Origin: a virus
Lineage: Duplodnaviria; Caudoviricetes
DNA length: 33,053 bases
IMG/VR virus record: IMGVR_UViG_3300037851_000900
Span: 1-33,053 of that record
Strand: one strand, 5' to 3'
The notes under the pieces were generated by a model. It worked only from the letters and a program-made list of their open reading frames with translations. It was not told the origin of the DNA and did no database searches. A program made the position numbers and the translations under genes. The number at the start of each line of letters is the position of its first letter. Position 1 is the stretch's first letter. Positions 1 to 31,036 of the stretch are shown here, piece by piece.

Positions 1-642
1 ATCGCCGCTCGCGGCGACCTCACGGTGATCTGGTGTCTGGAGCAGGTTGGCGATGTGCTCTGGGCGCGCGAGCGCGTGGAGCTCGCGCGGGCCCCCTTCG
101 CCACGCAGCTCGCCGAGCTCGCCCGGCTCATGGGGCGCTACCGCATCGTGCGGGCGGCGCTGGATCAGACCGGCATGGGCGAGGGATTGCTGCAGCAGGC
201 CCAGCGTGCCCATGGCGGCACGCGGGTGGTCGGCGTCCTGTTCACCCCCGCCGCCAAGCTCGATCTGGCCAGCGCGCTAAAGGACCGCATGGAGGACCGC
301 ACGTTGCGTCTGCCGCAAGGCGATACCCCCCTGCGCAACGATCTGCACAGCGTCCAGCGCACCGCCGGCCCGACCGGCATCCCGCGCCTGAGCGCCGAGC
401 GCGAGGGCGGCAGCCATGCCGACCGCTTCTGGGCGCTGGCCCTGGCGGTGTCGGCGGCGGGCAAAGGAGCTGCCGAATACGCCTATCACCCGGTGCGCCA
501 GCGGGCCATGCCGGACGGCAGGCCAGCCCCAGTCACCGGGTCCGATCACCTACGCAGCCGCCGTGCCGAGGAGGTCGCCGCGGCCGCCCAGCCGCACGGC
601 GGCGGCTTGCGCCGCCTCCTGCCGAGGCGAGGGGCACTCTGA
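1..642 (+). CDS. Mu gp28-like terminase large subunit, C-terminal part (5'-truncated, copy 1)
   Basis: Open from base 1 (IAARGDLTV...). Contains the RNase H-like nuclease motifs DQTGMG and HADRFWALALA. Homologous to the 3' part of 29630..31036. The stop overlaps the portal ATG (TGATG). Confidence 0.9.
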   Translation: MAARGDLTVIWCLEQVGDVLWARERVELARAPFATQLAELARLMGRYRIVRAALDQTGMGEGLLQQAQRAHGGTRVVGVLFTPAAKLDLASALKDRMEDRTLRLPQGDTPLRNDLHSVQRTAGPTGIPRLSAEREGGSHADRFWALALAVSAAGKGAAEYAYHPVRQRAMPDGRPAPVTGSDHLRSRRAEEVAAAAQPHGGGLRRLLPRRGAL

Positions 643-2288
643 TGCCGGATCCAGTCCTCCTGGGCGCCGATGGGCGTCCCCTGCGGGTGCAGAGCCGCGC
701 CGAGCTGGCCCGGCCCTATGCCACGGCCACCCTGGCTGGGGTGCGCCGGGCCTGGGACACGACCAGCATCGCCGACGGTTTGACTCCCGAGTCCCTGGCC
801 GCCACCCTGAAGGCGGCAGATGCCGGGGACGGCTACAACTTCCTCACCCTCGCCGCCGAGATCGAGCGGCGCGAGGCCCATTACCGCTCGGTGCTCGGCA
901 CCCGCCGCCAAGCGGTGCTGCGCCTGCCGGTGACGGTGGAGAGCGCGAGCGACGAGGCGGCGGACCTGGCGCTCGCCGATGAGGTGCGCGCCCTGGTGCG
1001 CGGCCCCGGCTTCCGCCGGGCCTGCTCCTTCCTCCTGGACGCCCTGGGCAAGGGCTATGCCGTGGTGGAGTTGACCTGGGACACCGGGCGCGCCCCCTGG
1101 GCGCCGCGCGACCGCACCGAGGCGCGCACCGGAGAGGTCATCGCGGGCTATCGCTGGATCGACCCGCGCTGGTTCGCCTGGCACCGCGAGCGCCCGGGTG
1201 AGCTGCGCCTGCGCGATGTCGCCGCCCCCGTCGAGGGGTTGCCCCTGCCGCCCTACCGCTACCTGGTGCACGCCCCCGGGCTGCTCAGCGGCCACCAGCT
1301 CGGCTGCGGGTTGGCGCGCACCGCGGTCATCGCCTATATGGCCAAGAGCTTTGCGCTGGGCGACTGGTTGCGCTTCGCCGACACCTATGGCCTGCCCATG
1401 CGGGTGGGCAAATACGGCCCCGACGCCAAAGAGGAAGACTTGGCTAAGCTGCTCGCGGCGATTGCCAACCTGGGCACCGACTGGGGGGCGTCGATTCCGG
1501 AGTCGATGCGGATCGAGCTGATCCAGGCCGCGGCGAGCGGCCCCGGGGCGGACACCTTCGAGCGCCTCGCCCGCTGGGCCGATCAGCAGCTCTCCAAGCT
1601 GGTCCTGGGCCAAATCGCCAGCAGCGAGGGCCAGCCAGGGGCGCTGGGTGGGAATCAGGCACAGGACGAGGTGCGCCGAGATCTGCGCGATGCCGATGCG
1701 GCTGACCTGGCCGAGACCCTAAATCGAGACTTAGTGGGCGCCTACCTGGCACTCAATCATGGCGGCATGGACCCGGATGACGCCCCGCGCATCCTGATCG
1801 CAGAGCCGGACGCGGAGGACCTCGCGGGCCTGGTCGATGCCCTGGCGCGCCTGGTCCCGCTCGGGCTGCGGGTCGAGCAGAGCATTATCCGCGATAGGTT
1901 GGGAATACCAGATCCTGCGCCGCATAGTGAGCTACTAGCCGCCGTTCCAGTCCCTGTTTCTGGAGGACCGATACCTGTTGGGGCGCCAGTCTCGGCCAAC
2001 CGGATCACCCTTCACCGCGCCGGCGTGCTCGCCGCGGACGACTACGCGGATCAGCAGACCGCGGCGCTGGAACGGGCGGCGGCCGCTCCCATGGACACCT
2101 TGCTCGCGCCCATCCGCGCCGCCCTTGATGCCTCCCTCGCGTCAGATGAAGACTTGGCTGACTTCGCCGAACGCTTGCGGCGGCTATATCCGGATCTGCC
2201 TGGCGAGGAGCTCGCCGCCGTGATGGGCGAGGCCCTGTTCGCCGCCGAGCTAGCCGGGCGCTACGACGTTATGCAGGAGGGTGCATGA
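642..2288 (+). CDS. Mu gp29-like portal protein (DUF935 family), copy 1
   Basis: Start reassigned to ATG 642 (MPDPVLLGADGRPL), matching the start of copy 2. Motifs YGLPMRVGKY and QLSKLVLGQ. Lies directly after TerL. Confidence 0.9.
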   Translation: MPDPVLLGADGRPLRVQSRAELARPYATATLAGVRRAWDTTSIADGLTPESLAATLKAADAGDGYNFLTLAAEIERREAHYRSVLGTRRQAVLRLPVTVESASDEAADLALADEVRALVRGPGFRRACSFLLDALGKGYAVVELTWDTGRAPWAPRDRTEARTGEVIAGYRWIDPRWFAWHRERPGELRLRDVAAPVEGLPLPPYRYLVHAPGLLSGHQLGCGLARTAVIAYMAKSFALGDWLRFADTYGLPMRVGKYGPDAKEEDLAKLLAAIANLGTDWGASIPESMRIELIQAAASGPGADTFERLARWADQQLSKLVLGQIASSEGQPGALGGNQAQDEVRRDLRDADAADLAETLNRDLVGAYLALNHGGMDPDDAPRILIAEPDAEDLAGLVDALARLVPLGLRVEQSIIRDRLGIPDPAPHSELLAAVPVPVSGGPIPVGAPVSANRITLHRAGVLAADDYADQQTAALERAAAAPMDTLLAPIRAALDASLASDEDLADFAERLRRLYPDLPGEELAAVMGEALFAAELAGRYDVMQEGA

Positions 2289-2518
2289 ATCAATATCCCA
2301 GCGCCAGCGCGGCTGGCGGGCATTGGAACGCCTATTGCGAAGGGGCCGTGGATCATGAGGACTACTTGACCCGCCTCACACGGGTCCCTGATCATCTGCG
2401 GGCGGACGTAATTCGCCACTGCCAGACCGTGGCCGCCCTTCGGGAGCTTAAGCGACGGCGCATGAACGCGATCGGCAGGAGCGGCGCGAACTCATCTGCC
2501 TGGCCTATGCGGGATTGA
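2285..2518 (+). CDS. Small hypothetical protein between portal and MuF, copy 1
   Basis: ATGA overlap with the portal stop and a GGAGG RBS. The homologous ORF at 32676..32918 keeps the frame (WNAYCE...DVIRHCQTVAALREL). Confidence 0.7.
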   Translation: MNQYPSASAAGGHWNAYCEGAVDHEDYLTRLTRVPDHLRADVIRHCQTVAALRELKRRRMNAIGRSGANSSAWPMRD

Positions 2519-2521
2519 CCG

Positions 2522-4036
2522 GTGGCTGAATACGGCTCCCTGTCCTTCGCCGAGCAGATCGCCTACTTCAAGGGCAAGCTGAATCTGCCCACTGCGCGCT
2601 GGGACGATATCCGCGGCGCCGCCCATGACCGTGCCTTTATCGTCGCTGGGGCGGCCAAGGCCGATCTCTTGGCCGATCTGCATACAGCCGTCCTCAAGGG
2701 CATTGAGGACGGCACGACATTGGAAGAATTCCGCCGCGACTTCGACGAGATCGTTGCCAAACACGGCTGGACGGGATGGACTGGCGAGGACAGCGTGCCA
2801 GGCGTCGCCTGGCGCACCCGCGTCATCTATGAGACCAACCTACGCACATCCTATGCCGCCGGGCGTTGGGCGCAGATCAAGGAGGTCAAGGCCGAGCGCC
2901 CCTATCTACAGTACCGCCATAACGACTCGGTGCTGCACCCGCGGCCCCTGCATAAGTCCTGGGATGGCCTGGTGCTGGCGGTCGACGACCCATGGTGGCG
3001 CACCCATTGGCCGCCCAACGGCTGGGGCTGCAAGTGCAGAGCATTCGCACTCTCCGCGCGTGATCTCGCCAAAATGGGCAAGACAGGGCCGGACAAGACC
3101 CCGAACGACGGGACCTACACCGTCACCAGACGCGGGGAAGAGCAGATCTTGCCCAAGGGCGTGGACTACGGGTGGGATCATGCGCCGGGGGCGAATCGCT
3201 ACGAACTCGATCAGATGCTGCTTGATCCCAAGCTCATGCGGCTATTCGGCTCCGTGCCGCCGGCAGCTATCGCGCATGGGGCCGAATCGGATGCGATTGC
3301 CGGGGTTTTGCGGGATGTCGCCGGGACGTTCGGCGAGCCCCTGCCGCCGTTTACCCGGGTAACCGAGGTAGTGACAGCCAAGTACAAGATGGCTACTGAC
3401 TGCAACGGTGTTTATATGGTGCCAGGCCCTGGCAACCCGTTGGCGCATTACACCGACAGGCTAAAGGCCGCGCTGTGGAAGATCCGTATGGGCAGGGGGC
3501 TCGAGCCAGAAGAGGAGTCCATGATCAAGACCATCTGGCACGAGATCGGGCATAATCGCCAGCAGGGGTTAAAGGATAAAAACTATGTCTATGCCAAGGA
3601 TTCTGTCAACGAGACGTTGCTGGAGGCGACTAACGAGTTCATCGCGCTGCGCACCTATCCGCAGTTTCTGCGCGCCATCGGCGGCGGGGCGGCGCGCTTT
3701 CCCGTTTACGTGCGGGCCGATTCCGGGTATCGCGTGTTCGTGGATCGCATCGAGGCGCTACTACGCGCGGTGGCGGTCGAGCAAGACGAATTCCTGGAGG
3801 AGATGGAGCGCGTGAGCTTCGAGGGCCCCATCGATGACGGCCATGGCGGGACCATCCTCGCCAACCTGAGTGACGCTATCGCTAAGGCCGGGCGTGCGGC
3901 CGGTTGGAAAGGGCTCTCTCGAACGCAGATACAGAGCGTGCTTCAGTGGATCCAAAAACCGGATGATTTTGCCGAGAAACTGGGCCGGCTTAAGGCGCGG
4001 AGTCCCCATGCCGCCGCGGATTCCTCTGCGCCATGA
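2522..4036 (+). CDS. Mu gp30/F-like head morphogenesis protein (MuF) with C-terminal HExxH metallopeptidase-like extension
   Basis: The N-terminal ~225 aa has MuF hallmarks (AFIVAGA, IYETNLRTSYAAGRW, HWPPNGWGCKC). The following ~280 aa include WHEIGH (HEIGH at 3539-3553) and a downstream EATNE. Confidence 0.85.
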   Translation: MAEYGSLSFAEQIAYFKGKLNLPTARWDDIRGAAHDRAFIVAGAAKADLLADLHTAVLKGIEDGTTLEEFRRDFDEIVAKHGWTGWTGEDSVPGVAWRTRVIYETNLRTSYAAGRWAQIKEVKAERPYLQYRHNDSVLHPRPLHKSWDGLVLAVDDPWWRTHWPPNGWGCKCRAFALSARDLAKMGKTGPDKTPNDGTYTVTRRGEEQILPKGVDYGWDHAPGANRYELDQMLLDPKLMRLFGSVPPAAIAHGAESDAIAGVLRDVAGTFGEPLPPFTRVTEVVTAKYKMATDCNGVYMVPGPGNPLAHYTDRLKAALWKIRMGRGLEPEEESMIKTIWHEIGHNRQQGLKDKNYVYAKDSVNETLLEATNEFIALRTYPQFLRAIGGGAARFPVYVRADSGYRVFVDRIEALLRAVAVEQDEFLEEMERVSFEGPIDDGHGGTILANLSDAIAKAGRAAGWKGLSRTQIQSVLQWIQKPDDFAEKLGRLKARSPHAAADSSAP

Positions 4037-4304
4037 TCTCCGCAGGCCATTCCCGCGCATACTCTTCGCGAGCCCTGCGATCCCCGTCGTCGGGCGGGAG
4101 GCGGAGCAGATACTGCAGGGCGCGCTCATCCTCGTCGCGCATGCGGAACAGATCGTAGAGGGTAAGGTTTTGTGAGCGCTCGCTCATTTTGAGGATTTCA
4201 GTGCGAATCTCATCCACGGTCATGCGCTCGCCATCGATGGAATATATGAACCCGAGGTTTTCTAGTTCGAATGGGGTCGGGTCATAATCTAGAATGGTCT
4301 CCAT
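3990..4304 (-). CDS. Small acidic hypothetical protein convergent on muF (candidate cognate immunity or partner protein)
   Basis: GGAG RBS before ATG 4304 (METILDYDPTPFEL..., 104 aa). It fills the 330-bp gap between muF and G, which has no convincing + strand ORF. Its 3' end overlaps the muF 3' end by 47 bp. Confidence 0.6.
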   Translation of the reverse strand: METILDYDPTPFELENLGFIYSIDGERMTVDEIRTEILKMSERSQNLTLYDLFRMRDEDERALQYLLRLPPDDGDRRAREEYAREWPAEIMAQRNPRRHGDSAP

Positions 4305-4366
4305 AGGGTCTCCATTTAGGTTCGGTTGAGGTATGAATCGCAACATCTCATTGGAGAGTATAGCCA

Positions 4367-4954
4367 ATGGCCGGCGCCCATAACACCATATCCATTGCCA
4401 TCGACGATGCCGAGGTCAAACAGACCCTGCGCCAAATGCTCGCGCGATTGCAGAACCCATCCCCAGTAATGCGCGATATTGGCGAATACATGTTGCGCAG
4501 TACCGACGAGCGATTTCGTCGCGAGGTTGCCCCAGACGGCAAACCATGGGCGCCGCTCTCGGAGGTGACCCTGCTGCGTCGCCTGACCGGGACCAAGAAG
4601 GACCCCAAAAAGGGGCTGCTCTCCAAGCGCAAGACCACCGCCGGAGGGCGCACCCTGACCAAGAAGGGCGCCAAGGTCTTGGCCGCGGCCAAGATCTTAC
4701 GTGACTCTGGGGTCTTGCAGGACACCATCCGCTATCAATTGAAGGATGGCGGGCGGGCGGTGGCGGTCGGGACCAATCGTATCTATGCCGCTGCCCAACA
4801 GTTCGGCATGAAGCGCGGCTACGCCGGCAGCGATCGCCATGGCCGCCCTATCCCCTGGGGGGATATCCCGCCGCGGCCCTTCCTGGGGATCGCGGCCGCG
4901 GACCGCGAGGAGATCCTGGAGATCCTGCGCCGCGCGCTTGAGCAATCGTTATAG
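4367..4954 (+). CDS. Mu G-like virion morphogenesis protein
   Basis: GGAGAG RBS. Motifs PDGKPWAPLS, ILRDSGVL, VGTNRIYAAAQQFG and IPPRPFLGI. Confidence 0.88.
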   Translation: MAGAHNTISIAIDDAEVKQTLRQMLARLQNPSPVMRDIGEYMLRSTDERFRREVAPDGKPWAPLSEVTLLRRLTGTKKDPKKGLLSKRKTTAGGRTLTKKGAKVLAAAKILRDSGVLQDTIRYQLKDGGRAVAVGTNRIYAAAQQFGMKRGYAGSDRHGRPIPWGDIPPRPFLGIAAADREEILEILRRALEQSL

Positions 4955-4979
4955 ATTGAATGTGATTCGCCTTACTTAT

Positions 4980-5035
4980 TTCGATATTTTTAATATAATC
5001 GAACGGACGATGGCATTATTAATATAATGCCCATC
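4980..5035 (+). promoter_or_regulatory. AT-rich intergenic site with two imperfect inverted repeats, each containing TTAATATAAT
   Basis: TTCGAT..ATCGAA (4980-5003) and GATGGCATTAT..ATAATGCCCATC (5009-5035). TTAATATAAT occurs at 4990 and 5019, upstream of the protease gene. Confidence 0.4.
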
Positions 5036-5080
5036 AACTTTAAATGCCATACTAACAGGCATTGCGTATATGGTCTAACA

Positions 5081-6055
5081 ATGGGACAAATGCGTCCATT
5101 GACTCTATGCAGATCGCTCCCGACACCGGTCCTGCACGATGGGGTGCCGCCGGACTGGTTATTGCTCGCGCCGCTGGGTACGCAAACTGGTGTCGATGGG
5201 CGTGGTTACCGTATGGATGACCCAACGCCGCTGTTAGCGGCATGGGACAGACGTACTGCCGATGTACCCCTTGATTGGGAACATGCGACTCACATTCGAG
5301 CCCCAGTCGGGTTAGATGCTCCCGCCGCAGGATGGATAGTCGACCTACAATCGCGCGACGATGGCATCTGGGGCAAAATCGTTTGGACCGAGGACGGGGC
5401 CACTGCTGTGCGATCGCGCGCCTATCGCTACTATTCCCCGGCATATCTGTTAGACGCATCAGGCGCCGTGCGCGCCATTGCCTCTGTTGCGCTCACCAAT
5501 CAACCGAACCTACCCCTTCCAGCCCTAAATCGAGAGAACATTAGAGAGAATATTAATATGTCTATTCCGCACCAATTGGCAAATGTACTCAACCTAACGC
5601 CATCGGCTACAGATGATGACGTCATTAATGCAATTCGCACCCTGCAGCAGGATAGGGAAACAGCTCTACACCGCGCTAACACCCCCGATCTTTCGATTTA
5701 TGTGCCCCGCGCCGATTACGATGTTGTTTTGCATCGTGCGGTGCAGGCAGAAACGATGTTGCGTCAAATGCAGGAGGATCAACGCGAGTGCGAAATTAAT
5801 GGTCTCATCGATCGCGGCCTATCTGAGGCGAGAATAACTCCCGCCACTGTCGAATATCATCGGGCTCAGGCTCGTACCGATGGCGGCATCGATAGGTTGC
5901 GTGCATTTATCGATGCCGCGCCGGTTGTGGTGAGCGAGAGCAACCATAACGGTGGTTCACCACATGGCGATGCTACCCTCACCGCTGAACAGATCGCTAT
6001 TGCCGCAGCATTCGGCAATAGCGCCGAAATAATCGCTAAATTTGGAGGCAGGTAA
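5081..6055 (+). CDS. Mu gp32/I-like prohead protease (probably with C-terminal scaffold)
   Basis: Motifs PLDWEH, APAAGWI, YRYYSP and VALTNQPNL. The start is uncertain (5027, 5081 or 5090). An in-frame internal ATG at 5558 follows a GAGAG RBS-like tract. Confidence 0.88.
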   Translation: MGQMRPLTLCRSLPTPVLHDGVPPDWLLLAPLGTQTGVDGRGYRMDDPTPLLAAWDRRTADVPLDWEHATHIRAPVGLDAPAAGWIVDLQSRDDGIWGKIVWTEDGATAVRSRAYRYYSPAYLLDASGAVRAIASVALTNQPNLPLPALNRENIRENINMSIPHQLANVLNLTPSATDDDVINAIRTLQQDRETALHRANTPDLSIYVPRADYDVVLHRAVQAETMLRQMQEDQRECEINGLIDRGLSEARITPATVEYHRAQARTDGGIDRLRAFIDAAPVVVSESNHNGGSPHGDATLTAEQIAIAAAFGNSAEIIAKFGGR

Positions 6056-6468
6056 TGACCGCACTAACTGCAGGACGTAGCACCCAGGTTCGATCTGGGA
6101 TTGATTTCAGAGGCCCAGTAGCGGCTGCCGTCGTTTGTTACGAGGGCGGCATTGCCGTGCGCGACACCGCCGGCGATATCAAACCAGGAGTCACAGCTAC
6201 CGGCCTGGTAGCAGTTGGTATGTTCACTGCCCGCGCCGATAACAGTGCCGGTCTGGCCGGCGCGATCGAGGCCAATTACAGGGTTGGGATATTCCTATTC
6301 AACAATTCCGCGAGTGCCGATCTGATCACCAATGCCGAGATCGGCGATGACTGCTATATCGTCGACGACCAGACTGTTGCCAAAACCAGCGCGACCAATA
6401 CCCGCTCGGTCGCGGGCAAGATCGTGGACGTGGACGCTAATGGCGTTTGGGTCAGAGTCGGAATCTGA
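6055..6468 (+). CDS. Putative capsid decoration/cement protein
   Basis: GGAGG RBS and TAATG overlap with the protease stop. Motif CYIVDDQTVAKT...AGKIVDVDANGVWV is typical of the small gene between protease and major head in Mu-like prophages. Confidence 0.7.
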   Translation: MTALTAGRSTQVRSGIDFRGPVAAAVVCYEGGIAVRDTAGDIKPGVTATGLVAVGMFTARADNSAGLAGAIEANYRVGIFLFNNSASADLITNAEIGDDCYIVDDQTVAKTSATNTRSVAGKIVDVDANGVWVRVGI

Positions 6469-6479
6469 GGAGATTAGTT

Positions 6480-7397
6480 ATGCTCATCAATAAAACGAAT
6501 GTGGATGATGTATTCCGCAATATCCGCGCCACATTCAATGTGGCATTACAGGCTGCAGAAACACAATATCAACAGCTCGCTACTATCCTGGATACCAACC
6601 AGATAGTTGAAAAAATGGATTGGGTAGGCAACCTGCCGAATTGGCGTAAATGGGTAGGGGATAAAATCGTCGGCAATCTGGCGGCGCATACATATGCCCT
6701 GACATGCGAGGAATACGAGAGCACGATTGCCGTTAAACGCAGAGATCTAGAGGCAGACCGGCTCGGCATATACAAAATGCAGGCAACCAGTCAGGGCGAA
6801 TTAGCCGCATATTTCCCAGAGGAGAGGGTTGGTGCTGCCGTTAATGCTGGTTTTACGGATGCATGCTGGGATGGAAAACCGTTTTTTGCCACAAACCATG
6901 GCACAAAATCGAAAAATGGATCCGATACCACATTCAGCAATAAGGGCACCGCAGTTCTTTCCGCTGCAACGTTGGCATTGGCCCAATCCAGTATTGGCGC
7001 AGGCCTAACGGCTATACAATCGATGCGCAATAACCAGGGGCGTCCTATTCGAGTCAACAACGTCAAATTGCTAGTTCCTGTAGCATTGCGCGAAACCGCT
7101 ATGGTTCTATCGACCAACGATAGGTTGGAGGACGGTAAACCCAATCCATATAAAGGGATCCCTGTTATTTATTGGCCTGAACTCAGTAGCGATACTGCGT
7201 GGTTTTTGGTCGGGGAGGCCGGAGGGCTAAAACCGTTTATCCTAGTGCAACGAAAAAAGCCGACCGTTGTAGAAGTAACCGACCCGCGCGATTCGCACGT
7301 TGTGCGGACTGGGGAATTTATATTCTCAATTGAGGCCGATGCAGTCGCGGGATACACATTCCCGCAACTCGCATACGGATCTACTGGGGCCGGTTGA
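6480..7397 (+). CDS. Mu gpT-like major capsid protein
   Basis: GAGGAG RBS before ATG 6480 (MLINK). Motifs RKWVGDKIV, YESTIAVKRRDLEAD, CWDGKPFFATNH, KPFILVQRK and QLAYGSTG. Confidence 0.92.
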   Translation: MLINKTNVDDVFRNIRATFNVALQAAETQYQQLATILDTNQIVEKMDWVGNLPNWRKWVGDKIVGNLAAHTYALTCEEYESTIAVKRRDLEADRLGIYKMQATSQGELAAYFPEERVGAAVNAGFTDACWDGKPFFATNHGTKSKNGSDTTFSNKGTAVLSAATLALAQSSIGAGLTAIQSMRNNQGRPIRVNNVKLLVPVALRETAMVLSTNDRLEDGKPNPYKGIPVIYWPELSSDTAWFLVGEAGGLKPFILVQRKKPTVVEVTDPRDSHVVRTGEFIFSIEADAVAGYTFPQLAYGSTGAG

Positions 7398-7453: not shown

Positions 7454-7891
7454 ATGTACGTGCCGTCTGGCGTCCTCGACGAAACCAAACATGATCATAT
7501 CCTCCCATATCGATGGAGCGCCTATTCGCGCGAGCGCATGGCGGGATTACATCATGACCTTGTGCGGGTGCTAGATCTGGCTATCGGCATATCGCAGATT
7601 GATCTAATTGTGCTAGAGGGACGGCGCACACTGGACCGCCAGATGCGTTTAGTGCGCAATGGTGCTAGTCGCACGCTGCGTTCTCGGCACCTAACTGGCC
7701 ATGCAGTCGATATCGCTCCACTCGACGAGGACGGCCATCCGTCGTGGGCATGGCCGCTCTATCACCGGATCGCTCCTGTCATCAAGCGGGCCGCCAGGGA
7801 CCTCGAGGTCCCGATCGAATGGGGCGGGGACTGGGAGCGCTTCCAGGACGGGCCGCATTGGCAATTGCCGTGGGATAATTATCCAATCTAA
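7454..7891 (+). CDS. Endolysin, M15 family (L-Ala-D-Glu peptidase-like) zinc metallopeptidase
   Basis: Motifs EGRRT..RQ, SRHLTGHAVDI, WGGDW and DGPHWQL. The start codon is uncertain. Confidence 0.88.
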   Translation: MYVPSGVLDETKHDHILPYRWSAYSRERMAGLHHDLVRVLDLAIGISQIDLIVLEGRRTLDRQMRLVRNGASRTLRSRHLTGHAVDIAPLDEDGHPSWAWPLYHRIAPVIKRAARDLEVPIEWGGDWERFQDGPHWQLPWDNYPI

Positions 7892-7896: not shown

Positions 7897-8325
7897 ATGT
7901 ACGCCACCCTGCAACAGATGCTAGATAGGTTCGATCGCATAGAGAATCCCGAACTCACCCAATTGACATCCTCTCCAAGCGGGGTTCGGGACGATGCGCG
8001 CATTGAATCGGCGCTCGATGAGGCGGATGGGGAGATAAATACGTATATCGGTAGCAGGTATCCCATTCCTTTAACAGGAATCAGTGAATCGACGGCAGCA
8101 AATCTCGCACGGCTGGCCTGCGATATTGCCCGTTATCGGCTGTGGTCTGTGCAATCGAGCGAGGAGGTTCGTAGGCGATACGAGGACGCCATAGGCGTCC
8201 TGGTGCGCATCGCCAAGGGCGAGTTAAATATTCTCCTGACGACCGGGACGGGCACTGCCTCCGGGGCCAGCGCGCGCGCCGCTGCGGTGCGCATGACACG
8301 CGACAATCTAGGGATGGTGTTGTGA
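7897..8325 (+). CDS. Mu gp36-like head-tail adaptor (DUF1320)
   Basis: MYAT...[21 protein letters not shown]...[10 protein letters not shown]...[13 protein letters not shown]. Confidence 0.88.
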
Positions 8326-8381
8326 GTCTATTGACAATAGAGGTAGATTCAATGCGTCCGTTATTTAATCACCAATATGGT

Positions 8382-10547: not shown

Positions 10548-10565
10548 TATTTACCGGAGATAGCA

Positions 10566-22353: not shown

Positions 22354-22361
22354 TGTGCGGT

Positions 22362-22395
22362 CGCGTGTTTATTATCCATTTTTAATAACCTCATT
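22362..22395. repeat. 34-bp exact direct repeat, copy A
   Basis: CGCGTGTTTATTATCCATTTTTAATAACCTCATT, identical to 23706..23739. Confidence 0.95.
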
Positions 22396-22898: not shown

Positions 22899-23723
22899 TC
22901 AGCTAACGTCCTGTTCAGTAACGTCTTGATTACTCATACATTTGCTGGTCTCTAGATTTTCCAATGCCGCGAGGGCGGCCGCTCTGCGCTCCTCAAAAAA
23001 CGCGCGCTCGCGCTCTCGCCTCTGAGTTCTAGCGTCTCGTTCCGCTGCCTCCCGCCGTTCCGATTCGATCAAAACCTCTCTGATCGTAGCCAGAAAACGG
23101 CGCGCCTCGCGGGTCTGCAGGTCCGGCAGGACGGACACGTTGCCAGTGAGCAACCCAGCTACAGCCGTCATTTCGGTGCGCTCCTGGGAGGGGAGCAAGG
23201 GGCGGATCTGGTCTACCGAAAGGCGACCTTGCTCGACGGCACGGGTCAGAACGTCTGCGCGGGCTGTTTTGTCGGTTCCAATACTGATTACCCATTTGGC
23301 GCGTGTGAGCTTTCGGCGCGCCTCAGCGCACAGGCGCTCGTAGGCGGACACGAAGGCGTGACGAGCACCAACCTCGTCTCCTATATCGAGAATTGGCCTG
23401 GCAATGCCCCAGGACTGGGCAATCTCGTCGGACCACACGAGGGTCGCCGCTTCGTCCTGAGCCTGCAAAGCCAGCGACCAGGCTTCATCTGCAGACGGGC
23501 GACCGTCGCAGGACTCCAGTCGCTCGATAATATCTGCAGGGCGCGGACAGAATTTGTTATAGCGGCAGTGATCTGAAAGGGCAGCTGAAACCAATTCGAT
23601 TGGATACGGCCTCAGAATAGCCCACCACATGCGCAGCGTTGCTTCCGATGGCGCTGCGGCGCCATATATTTCCATGGCCGCCGTTAGTTCCAATTCAAAT
23701 TCTGCCGCGTGTTTATTATCCAT
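22899..23723 (-). CDS. Replication protein downstream of O (P-like, helicase loader/inhibitor-like)
   Basis: GAGG RBS before MDNKHA (23723), overlapping the O stop. Motif WWAILRPYPIELVSAALSDH...KFCPRPADII...RPSADEAW is typical of genes that follow lambdoid initiators. Confidence 0.65.
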   Translation of the reverse strand: MDNKHAAEFELELTAAMEIYGAAAPSEATLRMWWAILRPYPIELVSAALSDHCRYNKFCPRPADIIERLESCDGRPSADEAWSLALQAQDEAATLVWSDEIAQSWGIARPILDIGDEVGARHAFVSAYERLCAEARRKLTRAKWVISIGTDKTARADVLTRAVEQGRLSVDQIRPLLPSQERTEMTAVAGLLTGNVSVLPDLQTREARRFLATIREVLIESERREAAERDARTQRRERERAFFEERRAAALAALENLETSKCMSNQDVTEQDVS

Positions 23724-23739
23724 TTTTAATAACCTCATT
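23706..23739. repeat. 34-bp exact direct repeat, copy B
   Basis: Identical to 22362..22395. On the minus strand it is RBS + ATG GAT AAT AAA CAC GCG. Confidence 0.95.
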
Positions 23740-24375
23740 TCTGTCCATTATTCCAGACATAGAGGAGTTAGTTAAAAATCCTCCTAATATTTTATTGGTG
23801 TTCTTAATAGATCTGACCTCGCGTTCGCGCAATAACCAAATGCGCCATTTAGATTCCCATTCCTGCTGCAGATATTTGCAACCATGATTATGTGCCTCGA
23901 ATTTATCGAAAACTATTTTAGGATCTAATAGATCTGGGCGGATTGTATTGGCTATCGCCATTAAATCGTCTTTAGGAATTAGATGGAGTTCAATCGGTTG
24001 TTGTATACGAGATGGAAATGGATTCTCTCTATTCGTATCTATATTGCATTGAATGTCATGTTTTACCCCTACATTCCAGAGTTTATAGTTAGACACTATA
24101 GAGATAGTCTGTCCGTATTTACCCGGTTGAACGCGGAGGACATTCATGTCAACCAATTCGCGGATTGCGGATCGACAATGACTGTCGGCCAATCCAGTAA
24201 GCATGGACATTTGGATCGATGTTATATCGTCTGATATTTTCCTCCATCCATATGTTTTTCTAATCGCAACCAATACAATTTTATATTGTCGTTTAGTAAA
24301 ATCGCTTCTTACTATTGCATCAAATAGCGCATTGTCAATTGCGGTATATCCGTTATCGCCATGAGATGTATTCAT
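23716..24375 (-). CDS. Lambda O-like replication initiator
   Basis: N-terminal DNGYTAIDNALFDAI...FTKRQYKIVLVAIRKTYGWRK..D.IT..Q is the Phage_rep_O signature. C-terminal FDKF...WESKWRIWL. Confidence 0.85.
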   Translation of the reverse strand: MNTSHGDNGYTAIDNALFDAIVRSDFTKRQYKIVLVAIRKTYGWRKISDDITSIQMSMLTGLADSHCRSAIRELVDMNVLRVQPGKYGQTISIVSNYKLWNVGVKHDIQCNIDTNRENPFPSRIQQPIELHLIPKDDLMAIANTIRPDLLDPKIVFDKFEAHNHGCKYLQQEWESKWRIWLLREREVRSIKNTNKILGGFLTNSSMSGIMDRNEVIKNG

Positions 24376-24384: not shown

Positions 24385-24699
24385 CTATTCGATAGGGTTA
24401 TCCATTGGACCGCATTTATTCAGCGGTTTCGAACCGATTACATCGCGTTTAGCGCACAGAATATATTCTGTGATGAGGTCCTGAGCCTCAACATTGAGTG
24501 CGTTGGCTAATTTATCGAGTACGGATGTGGTTATGTTGCTATTACCACTCTCGATTTTATTAATATACTGCGGGCATAAATTAGCCAACGATGCCAACTG
24601 AACTTGTGTCAGCCGCCGCGCTTTTCTGGTTGAACGGACGTTCATCGCTAGTATTTTAGCGGTACGCGAATGATTCTCACACATAAATATTTTATTCAA
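24385..24699 (-). CDS. XRE-family helix-turn-helix regulator (no peptidase domain)
   Basis: RKARRLTQVQLASLANLCPQYINKIESGNSNITTSVLDKLANALNV. Confidence 0.85.
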   Translation of the reverse strand: MNKIFMCENHSRTAKILAMNVRSTRKARRLTQVQLASLANLCPQYINKIESGNSNITTSVLDKLANALNVEAQDLITEYILCAKRDVIGSKPLNKCGPMDNPIE

Positions 24700-24817: not shown

Positions 24818-25264
24818 TTAAAATGGAAGATCGTCGTTATTGTCGACGTGAGCAGTTTTTCGCTTTGAGGAACGGCCATTAGGTTCATTCATTCCGGCCG
24901 CATTCATTTGCGCATCGTCAGCCATCCGTCTGTCGAGCATTATCATTTCATTGACGTGTATTTCTGTCGTGTACCTGGTCTGATTATGTTCGTCCTGCCA
25001 TTTGCGGGTTATTAGGCGCCCCTCGACATATATGCGCGATCCAGTACGTAGGTACTCAGACGCTATTTCCGCTAGCCGGCGCCACAGCACGCACCGATGC
25101 CAATCGGTGCGCTCCTGGGTTTCTCCGCTCTGTTTGTCGGTAAATTTATACGAAGTGGCGACGCTAATAGTCGCCACTGAATCACCGGCATTGGATATAC
25201 GGAGATCCGGATCGGCACCCAAATTACCAATCAACTGAACCCGATTAAGCGATCGCACGATCAT
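24818..25264 (-). CDS. ssb: Single-stranded DNA-binding protein
   Basis: LNRVQLIGNLGADP...TDWHRCVLW...IYVEGRL.TRKWQD...YTTEI, with the acidic tail DDLPF. Confidence 0.97.
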   Translation of the reverse strand: MIVRSLNRVQLIGNLGADPDLRISNAGDSVATISVATSYKFTDKQSGETQERTDWHRCVLWRRLAEIASEYLRTGSRIYVEGRLITRKWQDEHNQTRYTTEIHVNEMIMLDRRMADDAQMNAAGMNEPNGRSSKRKTAHVDNNDDLPF

Positions 25265-26591
25265 TCACCCTATTGTTTCGGATGCATTCCCGTAGCAATT
25301 TCGCGCGTCGCGCCAATGTCTCTGCCCGAAGCACTTCGGCCTGGTCAATATTCCCATCGCGCGCCATTGCGCGCATGTTGGCCGTTTTAGCGCGTTTGCT
25401 AACGTCCGCCGATATATCGGCCAATTGTTCGGCAGAACCGTTCCAATCGTATTCGGATTTTATCCAATCCAATGTCTCTGATATTGCATTGTCGTTAGGC
25501 GACATCGATTTAGCGGATTTCTCCTCAGCCGCCATTTTCGCAACAAACTCCGGTAATTTTCGTTCGATTTCATTGGCATGTGCCTCCCATAGCCGATCGA
25601 AATGTATCCCATCTGGATACGCATCCGGGTGCCGCCCCGCTAGCCATTTGCGTACGCGCTCGCGAGGCACTCCCGCACCATGCATCAACGACTCCAATCG
25701 ACGGTGCTGAGCATCGGTTACCAATCGTGGAGTTTCGCCAATCACATTGGGATTGGTAGGCGTAGTTTGTGCTCCCCTTTCACTGCGTGGGCGGCAGCCG
25801 CCAAACTGACCGTGGGGAGCATTCCCACATGAGACAGACTGCGGGGGAACAGTCTGTGCAGATTGTTGGCCAATAGCGTCGATCCGATTAGCCGCGATCT
25901 GCGGTTCGAGTAACCATTGCGCTAATTCATGGCCAAAATCCTCGCCAGGTTTATCAATAGTTAAGTCCTGGAATTGTCCTGATCTATCTTTAATTACCTG
26001 TGCAATATGATTCGAATTGATTTCGAGTAAGATATCGAATTCGTATTCAATCCCTTTCCCCTGTTCTGGGGATAGGCCTACACGTACCGGCCGTTGCCTA
26101 CCGTTGCTATCAGATTCAACAGTCCATTCGGTCCTGCTTCGCATTGTGGCGATCACGTGTCCAGGGAATGACAGAATAGAATCTATTAGGGAGCGCTGAC
26201 GCGGAGTTCCCTCGCTCCATGCTCCCCATGAATTCCCGCGATATTTCGTACTAGCCAATCTATCAATCTCGGCCAATAACTCATGCCATCCATGGGAAAG
26301 AGAATCAATAATAAGAACGTCATAGCCAGCGGCAGCGGCTGCATTTATAGCCGATTGATACGCCTGGATTTTTTTATCAGACAACGATAGAACGTCGAAA
26401 CTGAACCGGTCTGCGTATTTGCATGAGCTACCGCGTTCAGTGTCTATTACCGCAATACGTCCTCCTAAACCGCGTGCAATTCGTAACGCTGAGAACGTTT
26501 TTCCAGATCCGGCCGGGCCGAACAATCCGGCCCTTAATTTGGACTGGGATTTAATAGCTGGCGTGAATTGAAATACGGCATTGGCGTTCAT
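25245..26591 (-). CDS. AAA P-loop ATPase, Sak4-like phage recombination protein, with long C-terminal extension
   Basis: Walker A GPAGSGKT, IAVIDTERGS, Walker B LIIDSLSH and EYEFD. Adjacent to ssb. Start is 26591 or 26615. Confidence 0.85.
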   Translation of the reverse strand: MNANAVFQFTPAIKSQSKLRAGLFGPAGSGKTFSALRIARGLGGRIAVIDTERGSSCKYADRFSFDVLSLSDKKIQAYQSAINAAAAAGYDVLIIDSLSHGWHELLAEIDRLASTKYRGNSWGAWSEGTPRQRSLIDSILSFPGHVIATMRSRTEWTVESDSNGRQRPVRVGLSPEQGKGIEYEFDILLEINSNHIAQVIKDRSGQFQDLTIDKPGEDFGHELAQWLLEPQIAANRIDAIGQQSAQTVPPQSVSCGNAPHGQFGGCRPRSERGAQTTPTNPNVIGETPRLVTDAQHRRLESLMHGAGVPRERVRKWLAGRHPDAYPDGIHFDRLWEAHANEIERKLPEFVAKMAAEEKSAKSMSPNDNAISETLDWIKSEYDWNGSAEQLADISADVSKRAKTANMRAMARDGNIDQAEVLRAETLARRAKLLRECIRNNRVNDRAIA

Positions 26592-26683
26592 GTTGCCCCC
26601 ATCAATCATGTTCACGATTCATTCAATTATCGCTGTCCCCATGTAGGCGAATATGGGGAATAGATACGCTCCAACAACCGATC

Positions 26684-26902: not shown

Positions 26903-26949
26903 AGTAGATTCCTCCTGTCTCAACATCAGCATTTACTACTGTCGGGGAC

Positions 26950-26978
26950 AGTATAGCAACCGCAGTACTGAAATGCAA
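26950..26978 (-). promoter_or_regulatory. Leftward sigma70 promoter TTGCAT-N17-TATACT with extended -10 (TGn)
   Basis: The minus strand reads TTGCAT ttcagtactgcggttgc TATACT. It precedes the replication/recombination operon. Confidence 0.75.
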
Positions 26979-27070
26979 GCCCCCCTGGGGCAGAGAGAGA
27001 GAAAATGTGGCCTGCCCCTCGCGCGCGCGCGCGCGGAATATATATATCTCTCTCTATACCCCAGGGGGCT
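26978..27070. repeat. Imperfect inverted repeat enclosing (CG)8 and AT dinucleotide runs
   Basis: AGCCCCCCTGGGGCAGAGAGAGA ... TCTCTCTCTATACCCCAGGGGGCT. (CG)8 at 27020-27035. Confidence 0.8.
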
Positions 27071-27202
27071 ATATTTTGATAGTTTATTTTGTTGCGGACC
27101 AAAACGGTACGGCTACCCGGACCAAAACGGTACTCTAGCCGGACCAAAACGGTACGGACAGAGGACCAAAACGGTACGCCGTCACGGATCGGCTGTGGAT
27201 AA
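27071..27202. other. Putative iteron-type replication origin: AT-rich tract, four iterons and a DnaA box
   Basis: AT-rich tract at 27071-27093. GGACCAAAACGGTAC at 27096, 27119, 27141 and 27163 (spacing 23/22/22). TGTGGATAA (reverse complement of TTATCCACA) at 27194-27202. Confidence 0.8.
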
Positions 27203-27220
27203 AAAAAAACAGCCACCCCC

Positions 27221-27249
27221 TTGCACATCTCCGCTGCCTCGGATAATAT
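27221..27249 (+). promoter_or_regulatory. Rightward sigma70-like promoter TTGCAC-N17-TAATAT
   Basis: -35 at 27221-27226 and -10 at 27244-27249, upstream of the first + strand gene. Confidence 0.55.
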
Positions 27250-27337
27250 CAATCACACGCGAGGACGTGCGCCGCCTGGCCAACCACACTCGCTGGGGTA
27301 TACACAGAACCGCCAATCTGCTATCGAGGGTAGTGAA

Positions 27338-27757
27338 ATGCCAATCGTAGCCACATCCACACCAACCCCAATTAACCAAACAAATCCCGAAGTCGGCCGC
27401 CAGCGCGACCCGCTAACGGCTAAATGGCTGGAGGCCATGTCTGTATGCGTTCTCCTCTCGAAAACAGGATGCACGCTGCTCGGCGCGCACGCGCATTCAG
27501 GTATCCCGGCGGTGATTGTCGACAGCAGACCGCGAGTTCCGGGCCTACGCGATGTAATGTCTCTCGCCTCCAACCATTGCGGCCAACAGAGTTATGCTGG
27601 ACGTATAGGGAACGTTCAGGTTTTGTGGGACGAGCCTGACAATGATACCGCAGCGTTCACAGCACGTATTAGGTCCGGGATTGAACAGCTATTCGACGGG
27701 CGCCAATTAACCAGTGTCGGCGCCGAATGCGGGCTGGCTTTAACTGAGTTATCCTGA
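27338..27757 (+). CDS. Hypothetical protein
   Basis: GAGG RBS before ATG 27338 (MPIVATS...). First ORF after the rightward promoter. No function recognised. Confidence 0.6.
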   Translation: MPIVATSTPTPINQTNPEVGRQRDPLTAKWLEAMSVCVLLSKTGCTLLGAHAHSGIPAVIVDSRPRVPGLRDVMSLASNHCGQQSYAGRIGNVQVLWDEPDNDTAAFTARIRSGIEQLFDGRQLTSVGAECGLALTELS

Positions 27758-27820
27758 TCGATTCAGCATCGTAGCCAATGCGTGCCATCGGTTATTCCCA
27801 TAAATGTCGAGGCGTATTCA

Positions 27821-28051
27821 ATGTCGTGGGATATTAATGAAATCCTACCATGTCCGCGAATGTCGATTTCGATTGACGTCATTGACGTGGTATTGGCAAT
27901 TATGCAGCAATTGCGTGTGCCGTATATGAGCGGTCCATATGGCGTTTCGCCTAAACGCAGACGCCAACTGTTGCACCGCGCACACTCGCGGCTATTCGGG
28001 ATCGATCCATCTGCCGCCGCCAACAGGCACGGATTTCGATATGGTATTTAG
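27821..28051 (+). CDS. Possible small basic hypothetical protein
   Basis: GAGG upstream of ATG 27821 (MSWDINEILP...), co-directional with its neighbours. No recognisable motif. Confidence 0.3.
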   Translation: MSWDINEILPCPRMSISIDVIDVVLAIMQQLRVPYMSGPYGVSPKRRRQLLHRAHSRLFGIDPSAAANRHGFRYGI

Positions 28052-28278
28052 CGGCATTGAACGATAGACCTAACGTCGTTCCAGACAGACAATTGATTCG
28101 ATGGCACTGCGTATTGATATAATGGGTCAATGGAATTGACTGATTGCTGTAGTGCATCCATAATCGGTCCGGTTAATAACCGTGCGTGCGCAGTATACAG
28201 CCATCGTGAGATTGCTATTATTCCAATAGCGGACATTGGATAAACCTGCCGAATCGATTCTGCCGGAGATGTAGCCCA

Positions 28279-28527
28279 ATGAATGAAAATTACGACGATT
28301 CGCCTAATAACGCCGATAGCAAATCATGGAGGCATTCGACTACGATATGGAGTGCTATAGTCAGCGTCATGTTGGGAATACTGCTGATTCTATTATCGGC
28401 GGTAGGCCTGGTCTCTCCGGAAATATTGGCAATCGGTCTCGCACAGATTGCTGCTGGGGTTGGTGCAATCCGCGGCCGTCTGAATGCTACCGAAACAATT
28501 GCATCCAATAGCAAACCCCTGAGATAG
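28279..28527 (+). CDS. Putative holin (two hydrophobic segments)
   Basis: GGAG RBS. KSWRHSTTIW followed by two TM-like stretches, 82 aa, upstream of the packaging genes as in Mu-like phages. Confidence 0.65.
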   Translation: MNENYDDSPNNADSKSWRHSTTIWSAIVSVMLGILLILLSAVGLVSPEILAIGLAQIAAGVGAIRGRLNATETIASNSKPLR

Positions 28528-28538
28528 GGGATCGGAAT

Positions 28539-28967
28539 ATGGATTCCGATCCGTCGTGGGTCAAATTAATTGTCGATGCCGGTCAGTTTTTATTGACTGG
28601 GATTGTTGGCGTTTATCTGCACCTAGAATTGCGTGACCGTGCGAGAGGGCATCAGGTTGACAGACTACGCCAGGAGATTGACAGACGTCTGGACGAGATG
28701 GCGGGCAGATTGGCGGCGCAGGAGGCAAAAATGGGATCGCTACCTACGCACGGTAGTTGCGCCGTACATCTGGAACGCCTAGCCGCAATCGAGGCGCGTG
28801 CCGCCAGTGCTCCTGGCGTTAGCGAATTCGTTCGTTTGCACGAGCGCATGGACGACCAGCTGGCGCAGGTAAACGCTATCGCTGGAGGGCTGTCGCGTGT
28901 TGAGAGCCTAATCGATACTCTGCACGATCATCTGTTGAATAGGCCTTTCACAATTCAGAAGTTATGA
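28539..28967 (+). CDS. Membrane-anchored coiled-coil protein (DUF2730/Mu gp25-like)
   Basis: N-terminal hydrophobic helix, then a coiled coil, LPT, and a terminal LHDHLL. Lies before the gp27-like gene. Confidence 0.65.
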   Translation: MDSDPSWVKLIVDAGQFLLTGIVGVYLHLELRDRARGHQVDRLRQEIDRRLDEMAGRLAAQEAKMGSLPTHGSCAVHLERLAAIEARAASAPGVSEFVRLHERMDDQLAQVNAIAGGLSRVESLIDTLHDHLLNRPFTIQKL

Positions 28968-29104
28968 ATCTGGTCGCGATTTTCCAATTCGAGATTTGGA
29001 TTATGGTTATCGTCCTCCTAATGTCCCAATTCAATTCAGGTAGGCGAGCAGATAATACAAATCGTCGATATTTCCGCGAGCGCGCTGCCAATGGGGCGCC
29101 GTAG
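28964..29104 (+). CDS. Possible 46-aa membrane peptide (below the ORF-track cutoff)
   Basis: ATGA overlap with the upstream stop. MNLVAIFQFEIWIMVIVLLMSQFNSGRR...GAP*, overlapping the next start. Confidence 0.35.
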   Translation: MNLVAIFQFEIWIMVIVLLMSQFNSGRRADNTNRRYFRERAANGAP

Positions 29105-29630
29105 CAAAATATACGAACTGCCCAGTGAGATTAGAACCGAGCTCGATAGCCGATTAATCGATAGGGGTTTTGGAGGTTATAGAGAGCTAGTTGGCTGGCT
29201 CTCTGAACGCGGTTACGATATACGTAAATCTACCCTCACTCGATATAGCCAACGTCTCGAAGAGGAGTACGCGGCAGCTCTATCTGATGTAATTCGAATC
29301 CAAAACCTAGCAGAGGCATATATGAATGCCAACCCGGATGAGCATTCCGCTCTCACTGGGGCTAGTGTGCGGATCGCACAGGATTCGCTATTGCGAATTG
29401 CAATAAAACTCCGTAACGTTAATGAGGATCCGATGGATATGGCGCGTGCAGTATCCAATATCAGCCGTGCTATTGCCGATCTCGGGCGCCTCGATATTCT
29501 CCGCGAGCGCTGGGTGATTGAGCAGAGACACGCTGGCGCCGCTGCCCTAGCGGAGCGCGCATCTGCTGAGGGTAATGTTGTCTCGACTGATCGCCTTCGA
29601 GAGATTGCCCGCGAAATATATGGGATCTAA
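29091..29630 (+). CDS. Mu gp27-like (DUF3486) putative terminase small subunit
   Basis: MGRRSKIYELPSEIR.ELD..L...GF.GY.EL..WL...GY.I.KS.L.RY, ending IAREIYGI. TAATG overlap with TerL. Confidence 0.88.
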   Translation: MGRRSKIYELPSEIRTELDSRLIDRGFGGYRELVGWLSERGYDIRKSTLTRYSQRLEEEYAAALSDVIRIQNLAEAYMNANPDEHSALTGASVRIAQDSLLRIAIKLRNVNEDPMDMARAVSNISRAIADLGRLDILRERWVIEQRHAGAAALAERASAEGNVVSTDRLREIAREIYGI

Positions 29631-31036
29631 TGGGCGAATTATTGCTACCGTATCAACGTGCCTGGATAGCCGATAAATCGCGATTTAAAATTGGTTTATG
29701 GGCGCGCCAAACAGGGAAAACGTGGAGCGCCACACTCGAATTAGTTTGGGATTGCGTTCAGGCCGAGTGGCGCGGTGCGCGGAGGCGTTGGGTCATTCTC
29801 TCTCGCGGGGAACGTCAGGCGCGAGAGGCAATGAACGAGGGAGTTCTCAGGCATTTGCAGGTGCTCGAAACAGTCCATCGCGCCGTTGAATACAATTGGG
29901 CTCCCGGTATAACAGCATATCAGGCCAGTTTGCCAGGCGGGTCGCGTATCACCGCCCTGCCAGCCAACCCAGATACGGCACGCGGGTTTTCGGCCTCGGT
30001 GCTGCTCGACGAGTTTGCGTTTCACCATGATAGCCGCCGCATCTGGCGGGCGCTGTTCCCGGTTATATCCGCTGGGCATAATCTGCGTGTGGTGAGCACA
30101 CCGAATGGCAAAAATAACCTGTTTTATGAATTGATGACATCCCCAGCTATGGAGAAAATATGGTCACGGCATGTGGTCAATATTCATCGGGCAATTGCAG
30201 ACGGATTGCCGCGGGACGTCGAGGAACTGCAACGCGGGATCGGTGACGACGATGCATGGCGCCAGGAATTCCTAATCGAATGGCTGGACGAAGCTAGCGC
30301 CTGGCTACCGTACGATCTCATTGACGGCTGCGAGGATGTGGGCGCAGGCAAAAGCGAACTCTATGCCGGCGGCCTCTGCTATCTGGGCATGGACATCGCC
30401 GCTCGCGGCGACCTCACGGTGATCTGGTGTCTGGAGCAGGTTGGCGATGTGCTCTGGGCGCGCGAGCGCGTTGAACTCGCGCGGGCCCCATTCGCCACTC
30501 AGTTAGCCGAAATATCCAGGCTCATGGGGCGCTATCGCATCGTGCGGGCGGCGCTGGATCAGACCGGCATGGGCGAGGGGTTGTTGCAGCAGGCTCAGCG
30601 TGAACACGGCACAACCAGAATTGTCGGCGTCCTATTTACCCCTGCCGCCAAACTCGATATGGCCAGCGCGCTAAAATGTCGCATGGAAGAGCGAACGTTG
30701 CGGCTGCCGCATGGGGATATTCAACTGCGCAACGATCTGCACAGCGTCAAACGCGCCATCGGCCCAACAGGCATTCCGCGATTGATCGCAGAGCGCGAGG
30801 GCGGCAGCCATGCCGACAGATTTTGGGCACTGGCCCTGGCGGTGTCGGCGGCTAGTGCCGGGGCTGCCAAATATGCATATCACCCGATGCGCCAGCGCCA
30901 GGAAACGGTCGGCACGCAATCCCTGGTCACTGGATCCGATCATCTGCGCAGTCGCCGTGCCGAGGACGTTGCGGCGGCCGCACAGCCGCATATCGGCGGC
31001 GCCCGCCACATTCTAAATCGGCGGGGAATATTCTAA
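29630..31036 (+). CDS. Mu gp28-like terminase large subunit (complete, copy 2)
   Basis: LLPYQRAW, Walker A ARQTGKT, Walker B VLLDEFAFH, VSTPNG, GMDIA and HADRFWALALA. Confidence 0.95.
   Translation: MGELLLPYQRAWIADKSRFKIGLWARQTGKTWSATLELVWDCVQAEWRGARRRWVILSRGERQAREAMNEGVLRHLQVLETVHRAVEYNWAPGITAYQASLPGGSRITALPANPDTARGFSASVLLDEFAFHHDSRRIWRALFPVISAGHNLRVVSTPNGKNNLFYELMTSPAMEKIWSRHVVNIHRAIADGLPRDVEELQRGIGDDDAWRQEFLIEWLDEASAWLPYDLIDGCEDVGAGKSELYAGGLCYLGMDIAARGDLTVIWCLEQVGDVLWARERVELARAPFATQLAEISRLMGRYRIVRAALDQTGMGEGLLQQAQREHGTTRIVGVLFTPAAKLDMASALKCRMEERTLRLPHGDIQLRNDLHSVKRAIGPTGIPRLIAEREGGSHADRFWALALAVSAASAGAAKYAYHPMRQRQETVGTQSLVTGSDHLRSRRAEDVAAAAQPHIGGARHILNRRGIF

Follow-up and report, generated by a model that had tools for sequence, protein, structure and literature searches.

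A predicted lambda-like O/P replicon with a candidate origin outside O, joined to Mu-type head and packaging genes, in a viral contig in which no transposase, integrase or CI repressor was found

The stretch of DNA analysed here (the window) is the whole of the 33,053-nt IMG/VR record IMGVR_UViG_3300037851_000900 (G000), a Caudoviricetes record classed as linear and estimated to be 86% complete by CheckV. Pfam and PHROG scans of 45 open reading frames (ORFs), together with a Pfam scan of 128 further six-frame ORFs, resolve it into two arms. The rightward arm encodes TerS, TerL, Portal_Mu, F, G, protease I, the gpT capsid protein, an endolysin, gp36 and a non-contractile (siphovirus) tail, whereas the leftward arm encodes an AAA_24/Sak4-like ATPase, SSB, one helix-turn-helix (HTH) protein, Phage_rep_O, a 279-aa P-like protein and VRR-NUC. 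The two operons converge at 21447–21497 and diverge at about 26.95–27.3 kb, as an original prediction made from the sequence alone had described. Above the Pfam cut-offs are Phage_Mu_Gp27 (TerS), Terminase_6N/6C, Portal_Mu (twice), Mu_F, Phage_tail_S (gpG), Mu-like_Pro, Mu-like_gpT, Gp36 and a tail terminator; hence, the TerS, portal, F, I, T and gp36 module of transposable Mu-like phages, likewise predicted, is present. Its head part spans 2522–7397 on the plus strand, with F at 2522–4036, G at 4367–4954, protease I at 5027–6055, a 137-aa virion structural protein at 6055–6468 and the major capsid protein T at 6447–7397, while the gp27-type TerS and TerL occupy 29091–31036 (plus strand). On the minus strand, SSB and the Sak4-like ATPase (AAA_24; Sak4-like in PHROG) lie at 24818–26615, the single HTH regulator (HTH_3) at 24385–24699, the initiator at 23716–24375, the P-like protein at 22899–23738 and the VRR_NUC nuclease at 21498–22082.

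The profile matches bear out the replication functions assigned earlier. The 219-aa initiator, which is free of internal iterons, matches PF04492 with 83.7 bits and TIGR01610 with 69 bits. The P-like protein (phrog_6028, phrog_2289), a putative helicase loader, was modelled with a predicted local distance difference test (pLDDT) score of 89; its top fold matches are lambda P chains (9oa1 first) with probabilities of 0.91–0.99 and weak E-values of 0.011–0.027, and the model also matches the SPP1 G39P fold.

A candidate origin, overlooked in the original prediction, lies where the two operons diverge. Its core at 27096–27177 consists of four identical quasi-palindromic iterons, exact 15-nt repeats at spacings of 23, 22 and 22 (chance mean 0.09; 0/100 shuffles reached four copies). 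On one side of the iterons lie an AT-rich tract and a long palindrome (26976–27090; hairpin z −4.4, 0/200 shuffles; 75% identity to positions 9624–9747 of the related locus L171), and on the other a perfect DnaA box on the minus strand (27194–27202), the only exact one in the window by a search with the DnaA-box consensus. Boxes with up to one mismatch are common by chance (5 found versus 5.15 expected), so that only the exact match and its position count. L171, from a metagenome, is the nearest replication relative (P-like 67%, O 58%, VRR-NUC 55%) and encodes an integrase, a divergent CI/Cro pair, O and P; the window HTH protein is the orthologue of its Cro-position gene (48.6%, versus 29% to the CI-position gene). 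In L171 and a second locus, L175, six homologous iterons and the same AT-rich/palindrome block are found between two halves of O, flanked by segments matching O residues 1–100 (58%) and about 127–188 (55%). The O linker measures 220 nt in L171 versus 78 nt, iteron-free, in the window, where the origin is situated outside the O gene, 2.6 kb upstream of it. The DnaA box is not present in L171 or L175. In L171 (9192–10011), O is frameshifted across the 220-nt iteron linker with its halves in different frames, and L175 shows the same offsets. Among the loci of the P-like family, arrays of at least four iterons within 1 kb upstream of the P-like gene were detected in 54 of 124 cases, versus 0 of 106 downstream controls.

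The origin of lambda maps inside O (PMC5043065, available in part). We infer from the sequence comparison that a lambda-type origin moved out of O to the point where the two operons diverge, and that CI and the integrase were lost. The relocated origin beside a perfect DnaA box is what is new here. No lambda-type origin outside O was described in the literature searched, a body that excluded most subscription papers and all supplements. The paired-iteron pattern had no match in viral contigs, a search with the O protein returned only itself among 116 candidates, and single-protein locus searches with the P-like protein and a 1175-aa tail protein were empty.

The genes that usually accompany a Mu-type head, or that would maintain a prophage or plasmid, were not recovered from the window, in agreement with the earlier reading of the ORFs. 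The MuA profile phrog_310 gave no candidate in six frames of the window; as a control, the same profile matched in 41 of 50 relatives. MuB/TnpB was not found, the sole ATPase in the window being the Sak4-like protein, which scores 15.7 with AAA_22 versus a cut-off of 27. Mor/C, GemA and Gam gave no match in the Pfam and PHROG scans of the 45 ORFs or the Pfam scan of the further 128, six-frame profile searches of the window returned no tyrosine integrase, resolvase or ParA, and plasmid Rep, ParB and protelomerase were without match in the Pfam and PHROG scans of window ORFs. The CI/Cro switch is incomplete, with a single HTH protein in the Cro position and no CI found in the window. The statement that no gap is large enough to hide a recombinase does not hold: the largest unassigned gap, 1,346 bp at 26933–28278, is long enough for an integrase, though it gave no recombinase match and contains the origin and a Kil-like ORF.

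How unusual this combination is can be gauged from 50 IMG/VR relatives, the longer records among 130 loci from capsid and portal searches. MuA and MuB are found in 41 of them, including all 28 that are at least 90% complete. Four of the remaining nine carry origin-type replication genes: G001 and G002 encode CI/Cro, an initiator and a P-like protein, G049 encodes CI, an initiator, DnaB and an integrase, and G050 a primase/helicase and a VRR-like protein. In a quick tree, the window TerL pairs with that of G050 (Shimodaira–Hasegawa-like approximate likelihood ratio test 98) inside a clade of MuA-bearing records. Owing to their incompleteness, G027 and G030 were not used as precedents, and G045 has Gam. 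G038 and G041 were not counted, being fragments: both carry a tyrosine integrase upstream of the packaging genes (L314:12044–13021 and L316:12329–13294) and no MuA in the fragment, and G041 has a Mu gp27-type TerS. An Acetobacter plasmid with gpT was rejected as well: it also encodes GemA and an AAA ATPase, which gives it the look of a Mu remnant. The cultured Myxococcus phage Mx4 (OK085710) shares with the window Portal_Mu, F, protease I, gpT, gp36 and gpG and the lack of MuA; it differs as a 57-kb myovirus with a Terminase_2 TerS, a tyrosine-integrase gene, no Phage_rep_O and a GC content like that of its host. Mx4 belongs to a Mu-like head–neck–tail class, was assembled as a circle, and is lytic and a generalized transducer (PMC8530038, PMC10720576, both available in part). 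Mu heads without transposition are already known, from Mx4 and from four of the 50 IMG/VR records, and the predicted pairing of Mu-type headful packaging with origin-based replication, supported here and complemented by a located origin, is no surprise in itself (Mx4, G001, G002, G049, G050).

The stripped-down layout, i. e. a Mu head and an O/P origin without transposase, integrase or repressor, was not found elsewhere. Phage_rep_O occurs in none of 53 Mu-head records, and Portal_Mu, sought in 50 of the 52 nearest O-bearing records, gave two faint matches (25 and 21 bits versus about 300 in the window). Megablast of positions 1–25000 against GenBank phages gave no match, PLSDB holds no close relative (best capsid match 43%), and a scan of genome contigs returned two distant portals, both in genomes with MuA. 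The same literature search yielded no described group of non-transposable Mu-head phages. Among the closest relatives, the prophages G001 and G002, whose portals carry the name Marichromatium gracile, resemble the window in capsid (70%) and portal (62–63%) identity, a P-like protein of the same family (36%), a homologous lysin and the lack of MuA and MuB, and G001 also shares distal tail homologues; both differ in having kept CI/Cro, in another initiator family, in a Terminase_2 TerS and in a GC content of 70–72%, and both records are incomplete. Transposable Mu/B3-like phages (G004, Pasteurella AFS-2018a, Rhodovulum RhkS_P1) share the gp27 TerS and the head gene order, and the window TerL is 53–58% identical to those of named Mu/B3-like phages; the window instead has an O/P origin and lacks MuA, MuB, Mor/C, GemA and Gam. 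With lambda, lambda-dv and L171 it shares the Cro-O-P order, inverted-repeat iterons by an AT-rich tract and the P fold, while the origin outside O, the DnaA box, the lack of CI and integrase and the Mu-type head set it apart. The unit would work like a lambdoid replicon in a Mu shell, and it falls outside the transposable phages, the temperate lambdoids and the phage-plasmids with partition genes.

The two contig ends are related but distinct. Copy A (1–2664, plus strand) comprises the C-terminal half of TerL (1–642), a portal gene (642–2288), a 77-aa ORF and the 5′ end of muF, and copy B (30395–33053, plus strand) the corresponding half of TerL, a portal gene (31036–32679), an 80-aa ORF and the 5′ end of muF. 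The original prediction had seen the gene order return after about 30.39 kb. The order does return, yet the DNA is not the same: A (GC 70.6%; GC content at third codon positions, GC3, 0.84–0.87) and B (GC 64.0%) differ by 342 mismatches and reach an identity of only 86.7%, the composition of B is shifted toward AT in 5/5 segments compared with A, and the record is linear. The copies are identical over their first 77 nt (1–77 and 30395–30471) and their last 104 nt (2561–2664 and 32950–33053, plus strand), and the GC polarity flips at the latter tract; the 77-nt identity would fit a k=77 vertex of an assembly graph. Both copies are under purifying selection (dN/dS 0.19 for the portal, 0.23 for the TerL half), and their identity is patchy (0/2000 permutations as variable). 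A relative-rate test revealed no faster protein change in the portal of B (23 versus 19 sites, p 0.64); the counts for the TerL half are 8 versus 1.

Two freshwater runs contain window sequence, of which X2 (2–5x) is too shallow for depth use. In X1, the allele depths of A and B at two clean bubbles sum to 13.0 (6.6+6.37) and 14.7 (9.94+4.73), compared with 5.5–9.6 (mean 7.7) for nine single-copy contigs, so that each copy is at about single-copy depth, and the depth specific to the allele of A is 6.3–9.9. One circle with two alleles would be expected to give about 7.7 and two copies about 15; a single circle was therefore rejected, as the sums amount to about 1.7–1.9 times the single-copy depth. 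X1 also contains a GC-richer allele further downstream, at 3745–3798 (5/5 AT→GC among the changes listed). Together with the depth sums, this points to a second, GC-rich sibling element that shares the TerL-portal-F block and to which copy A likely belongs. Exact patterns from both shared tracts matched no metagenome or viral contigs, and the flanks of the sibling were hence not recovered. The AT-shifted unit itself extends over 2665–33053 (30,389 nt, GC 55.9%). That this 30.4-kb stretch represents a whole unit, as had been proposed, is likely on the basis of homology closure, with no exact repeat at its ends.

The best capsid relatives (68–70%) and portals (55–64%) are named Marichromatium gracile and Lamprocystis purpurea, and because of these closest relatives the host is likely a member of the Chromatiaceae (purple sulfur bacteria). 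Base composition is mosaic, with GC3 values of 0.72–0.87 in the portal, F, G, chaperone and 5′ tape measure genes and of 0.34–0.52 in O, TerS, capsid and distal tail. A second GC-rich island in the AT-shifted arm (about 10900–13600, GC3 about 0.8), covering the 3′ end of the tail tube gene, the chaperone and the 5′ part of the tape measure gene, suggests a further recombination tract. The mosaic would be consistent with a non-integrating phage that drifts toward AT and in which recombination with GC-rich relatives has restored some patches. Exchange of DNA takes place between ex-temperate phages and prophages (PMC3945230, available in part).

Several other features complete the map. The MuF protein, with a phrog_35295 match, has 504 aa, including an unassigned C-terminal extension past about residue 270. 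The M15 peptidase endolysin (7454–7891, plus strand) is flanked by the genes for the capsid protein and gp36 and, counted around the unit, is some 9.5 kb away from a putative holin at 28279, unlike its homologue in G001, G002 and G004, which is located upstream of TerS. The tail region (7897–21446, plus strand) encodes the gp36 adaptor, a collagen/LamG fibre, the tail terminator, the tail tube, a putative chaperone, the tape measure and three distal tail proteins; the 1175-aa protein and a 728-aa protein of this region have homologues in G001. A 116-aa ORF at 22003–22353 (minus strand), possibly a regulator, has a weak BrnA-like C-terminal match below the cut-off (E 6e-4, 20.5 bits versus 26.1), the one match among the 128 further six-frame ORFs. 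Just upstream of this ORF there is a second copy of the region around the start of the P-like gene, giving a direct repeat of 52–57 nt (22339–22395 and 23688–23739; 86%, 34 nt exact) that is possibly a shared operator or translation signal, or else a recombination scar. Directly downstream of the origin, the first gene of the rightward operon (27338–27757, plus strand) is Kil-like by a structure match that provides a lead only (PF26843, TM 0.47/0.70), and is followed at 28279–28967 (plus strand) by the putative holin-like membrane protein and a 142-aa DUF2730-like gene, both with weak matches only. Rfam and tRNA scans of the window gave no match, a promoter scan stayed at chance level (14 found versus 12.9 expected), and no RNA dataset is listed as holding window sequence. 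In L171, a gene pair of 400 and 1021 aa (1129–5393; phrog_13642, phrog_7301) between integrase and repressor is possibly defence cargo.

The explanation that we favour, with a probability of roughly one half, is an ex-temperate lytic Mu–lambda hybrid siphophage, likely of Chromatiaceae, that recombines with a resident GC-rich prophage. Direct observations are which genes are present and which are missing, and that there are origin motifs homologous to the origin found inside O in a relative with an integrase and CI; the following steps are conceivable on this basis. O would bind the four iterons and open the AT-rich tract, the P-like protein would load DnaB of the host, and initiation may be helped by DnaA at the neighbouring box. 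Sak4 and SSB could then drive a switch to concatemers (compare PMC5499656 and PMC5928155, both available in part), from which the gp27-type TerS and TerL would fill Mu-size heads by a headful mechanism. The short genome would therefore be circularly permuted with a large terminal redundancy: named relatives with these heads have genomes of 33–39 kb, so that a unit of 30.4 kb would leave room for such redundancy or for host DNA. Generalized transduction is plausible by analogy with Mx4. Because neither CI nor an integrase was found, lysis would be the default outcome. The phage may recombine with a GC-rich relative sharing TerL-portal-F(-G) in the same host population; copy A would be this relative, and the contig would cross from it into the unit at 2561–2664, through either a genuine crossover or a switch made in assembly.

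Several points weigh against this explanation. A late activator (Q, Mor/C) was not found in the window, and DNA past both contig ends, which was not seen, could hold an integrase or CI. The fold match to lambda P is weak by its E-value (0.011), and 70 of the 124 P-like family loci are without an iteron array under the strict detector. X1, possibly the source sample, has a depth of only about 8, and contig depths are a weak gauge that provides no copy number. None of the contigs allows A or B to be phased through the shared tracts and the contig was not shown to be circular, while the near-equal depth of A, B and the unit fits chromosomal co-residence better than a free lytic phage. Among 123 dsrA-positive genomes, 80 were searched for a reaction centre with one match, and the two genomes of its family and order gave no match.

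An unlikely alternative is a phage-plasmid resembling lambda-dv, in which the Cro-like HTH protein autoregulates O/P and the relocated origin and DnaA box keep a multicopy circle without partition genes or CI. Cro, O and P without CI and integrase come near the minimal lambda-dv set of cro, cII, O and P, which suffices for that plasmid (PMC5043065, in its available part), the origin in its present form is similar to those of iteron plasmids, where DnaA boxes occur, and the BrnA-like match could hint at an antitoxin. Yet, ParA and any match to plasmid Rep or ParB are missing from the window, the depth of the unit is no higher than that of the sibling copy, Kil-like and lysis genes adjoin the origin with no recognised late switch, and the best PLSDB capsid is as distant as given above. 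With no partition system and with circular closure not demonstrated, the phage-plasmid put forward in the original prediction is no more than a possibility.

The near-equal depths speak for a less probable idea, namely a real co-integrate in which one crossover with a GC-rich resident Mu-like prophage placed an integrase-free unit in the host chromosome, in the order U-A-unit-B-D. The unit might leave again through the same homology or, staying where it is, replicate while packaging flanking host DNA in a manner similar to lateral transduction or a gene transfer agent (GTA). The contig itself runs from A into the unit, and the polarity flip at the 104-nt tract is what a single crossover predicts, although an assembler switch predicts it equally and an assembly chimera would give the same path. 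The unit encodes Sak4 and SSB, and Sak4 anneals oligonucleotides with 20% divergence (PMC5928155, in its available part). No host flank is seen in the contig, and the AT shift and the long branches in the TerL tree fit life outside a 70%-GC chromosome. To our knowledge, known GTAs have no replicon of their own, which counts against the GTA-like variant. A bolder version, equally doubtful, is a phage without integrase and repressor that persists by Sak4/SSB recombination into the homologous packaging genes of a resident Mu-like prophage, has a free-standing, DnaA-assisted origin of plasmid type rebuilt from a lambda origin, switches between circle and co-integrate and fills oversize Mu heads with flanking host DNA.

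No more probable than these is the idea that the contig represents part of a larger temperate phage in which the packaging block is duplicated and the integrase, CI or transposase would lie in unseen DNA between B and A. The linear, incomplete record, the presence of MuA and MuB in every near-complete relative and the integrases of the non-transposable precedents Mx4 and G049 speak for it; against it, the unit already has each packaging, head, tail, lysis and replication function once, and CI is missing from its usual place opposite Cro, a site inside the contig.

Taken together, the favoured hybrid siphophage is of interest in that replicative transposition and the Mu packaging motor are usually seen as going together, as the near-complete relatives illustrate, while this unit keeps the Mu gp27-type TerS yet has a lambda replicon swapped in. 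For genome mining, it cautions that Mu head genes do not imply transposition, and that a contig whose ends repeat the same gene order need not be a circle. The unit would be a natural test of whether the Mu pac/headful system acts on concatemers, and of the amount of host DNA taken along. The origin, out of O and with a DnaA box next to it, seems to have gone part of the way from the phage type to the iteron-plasmid type, and is clonable and testable.

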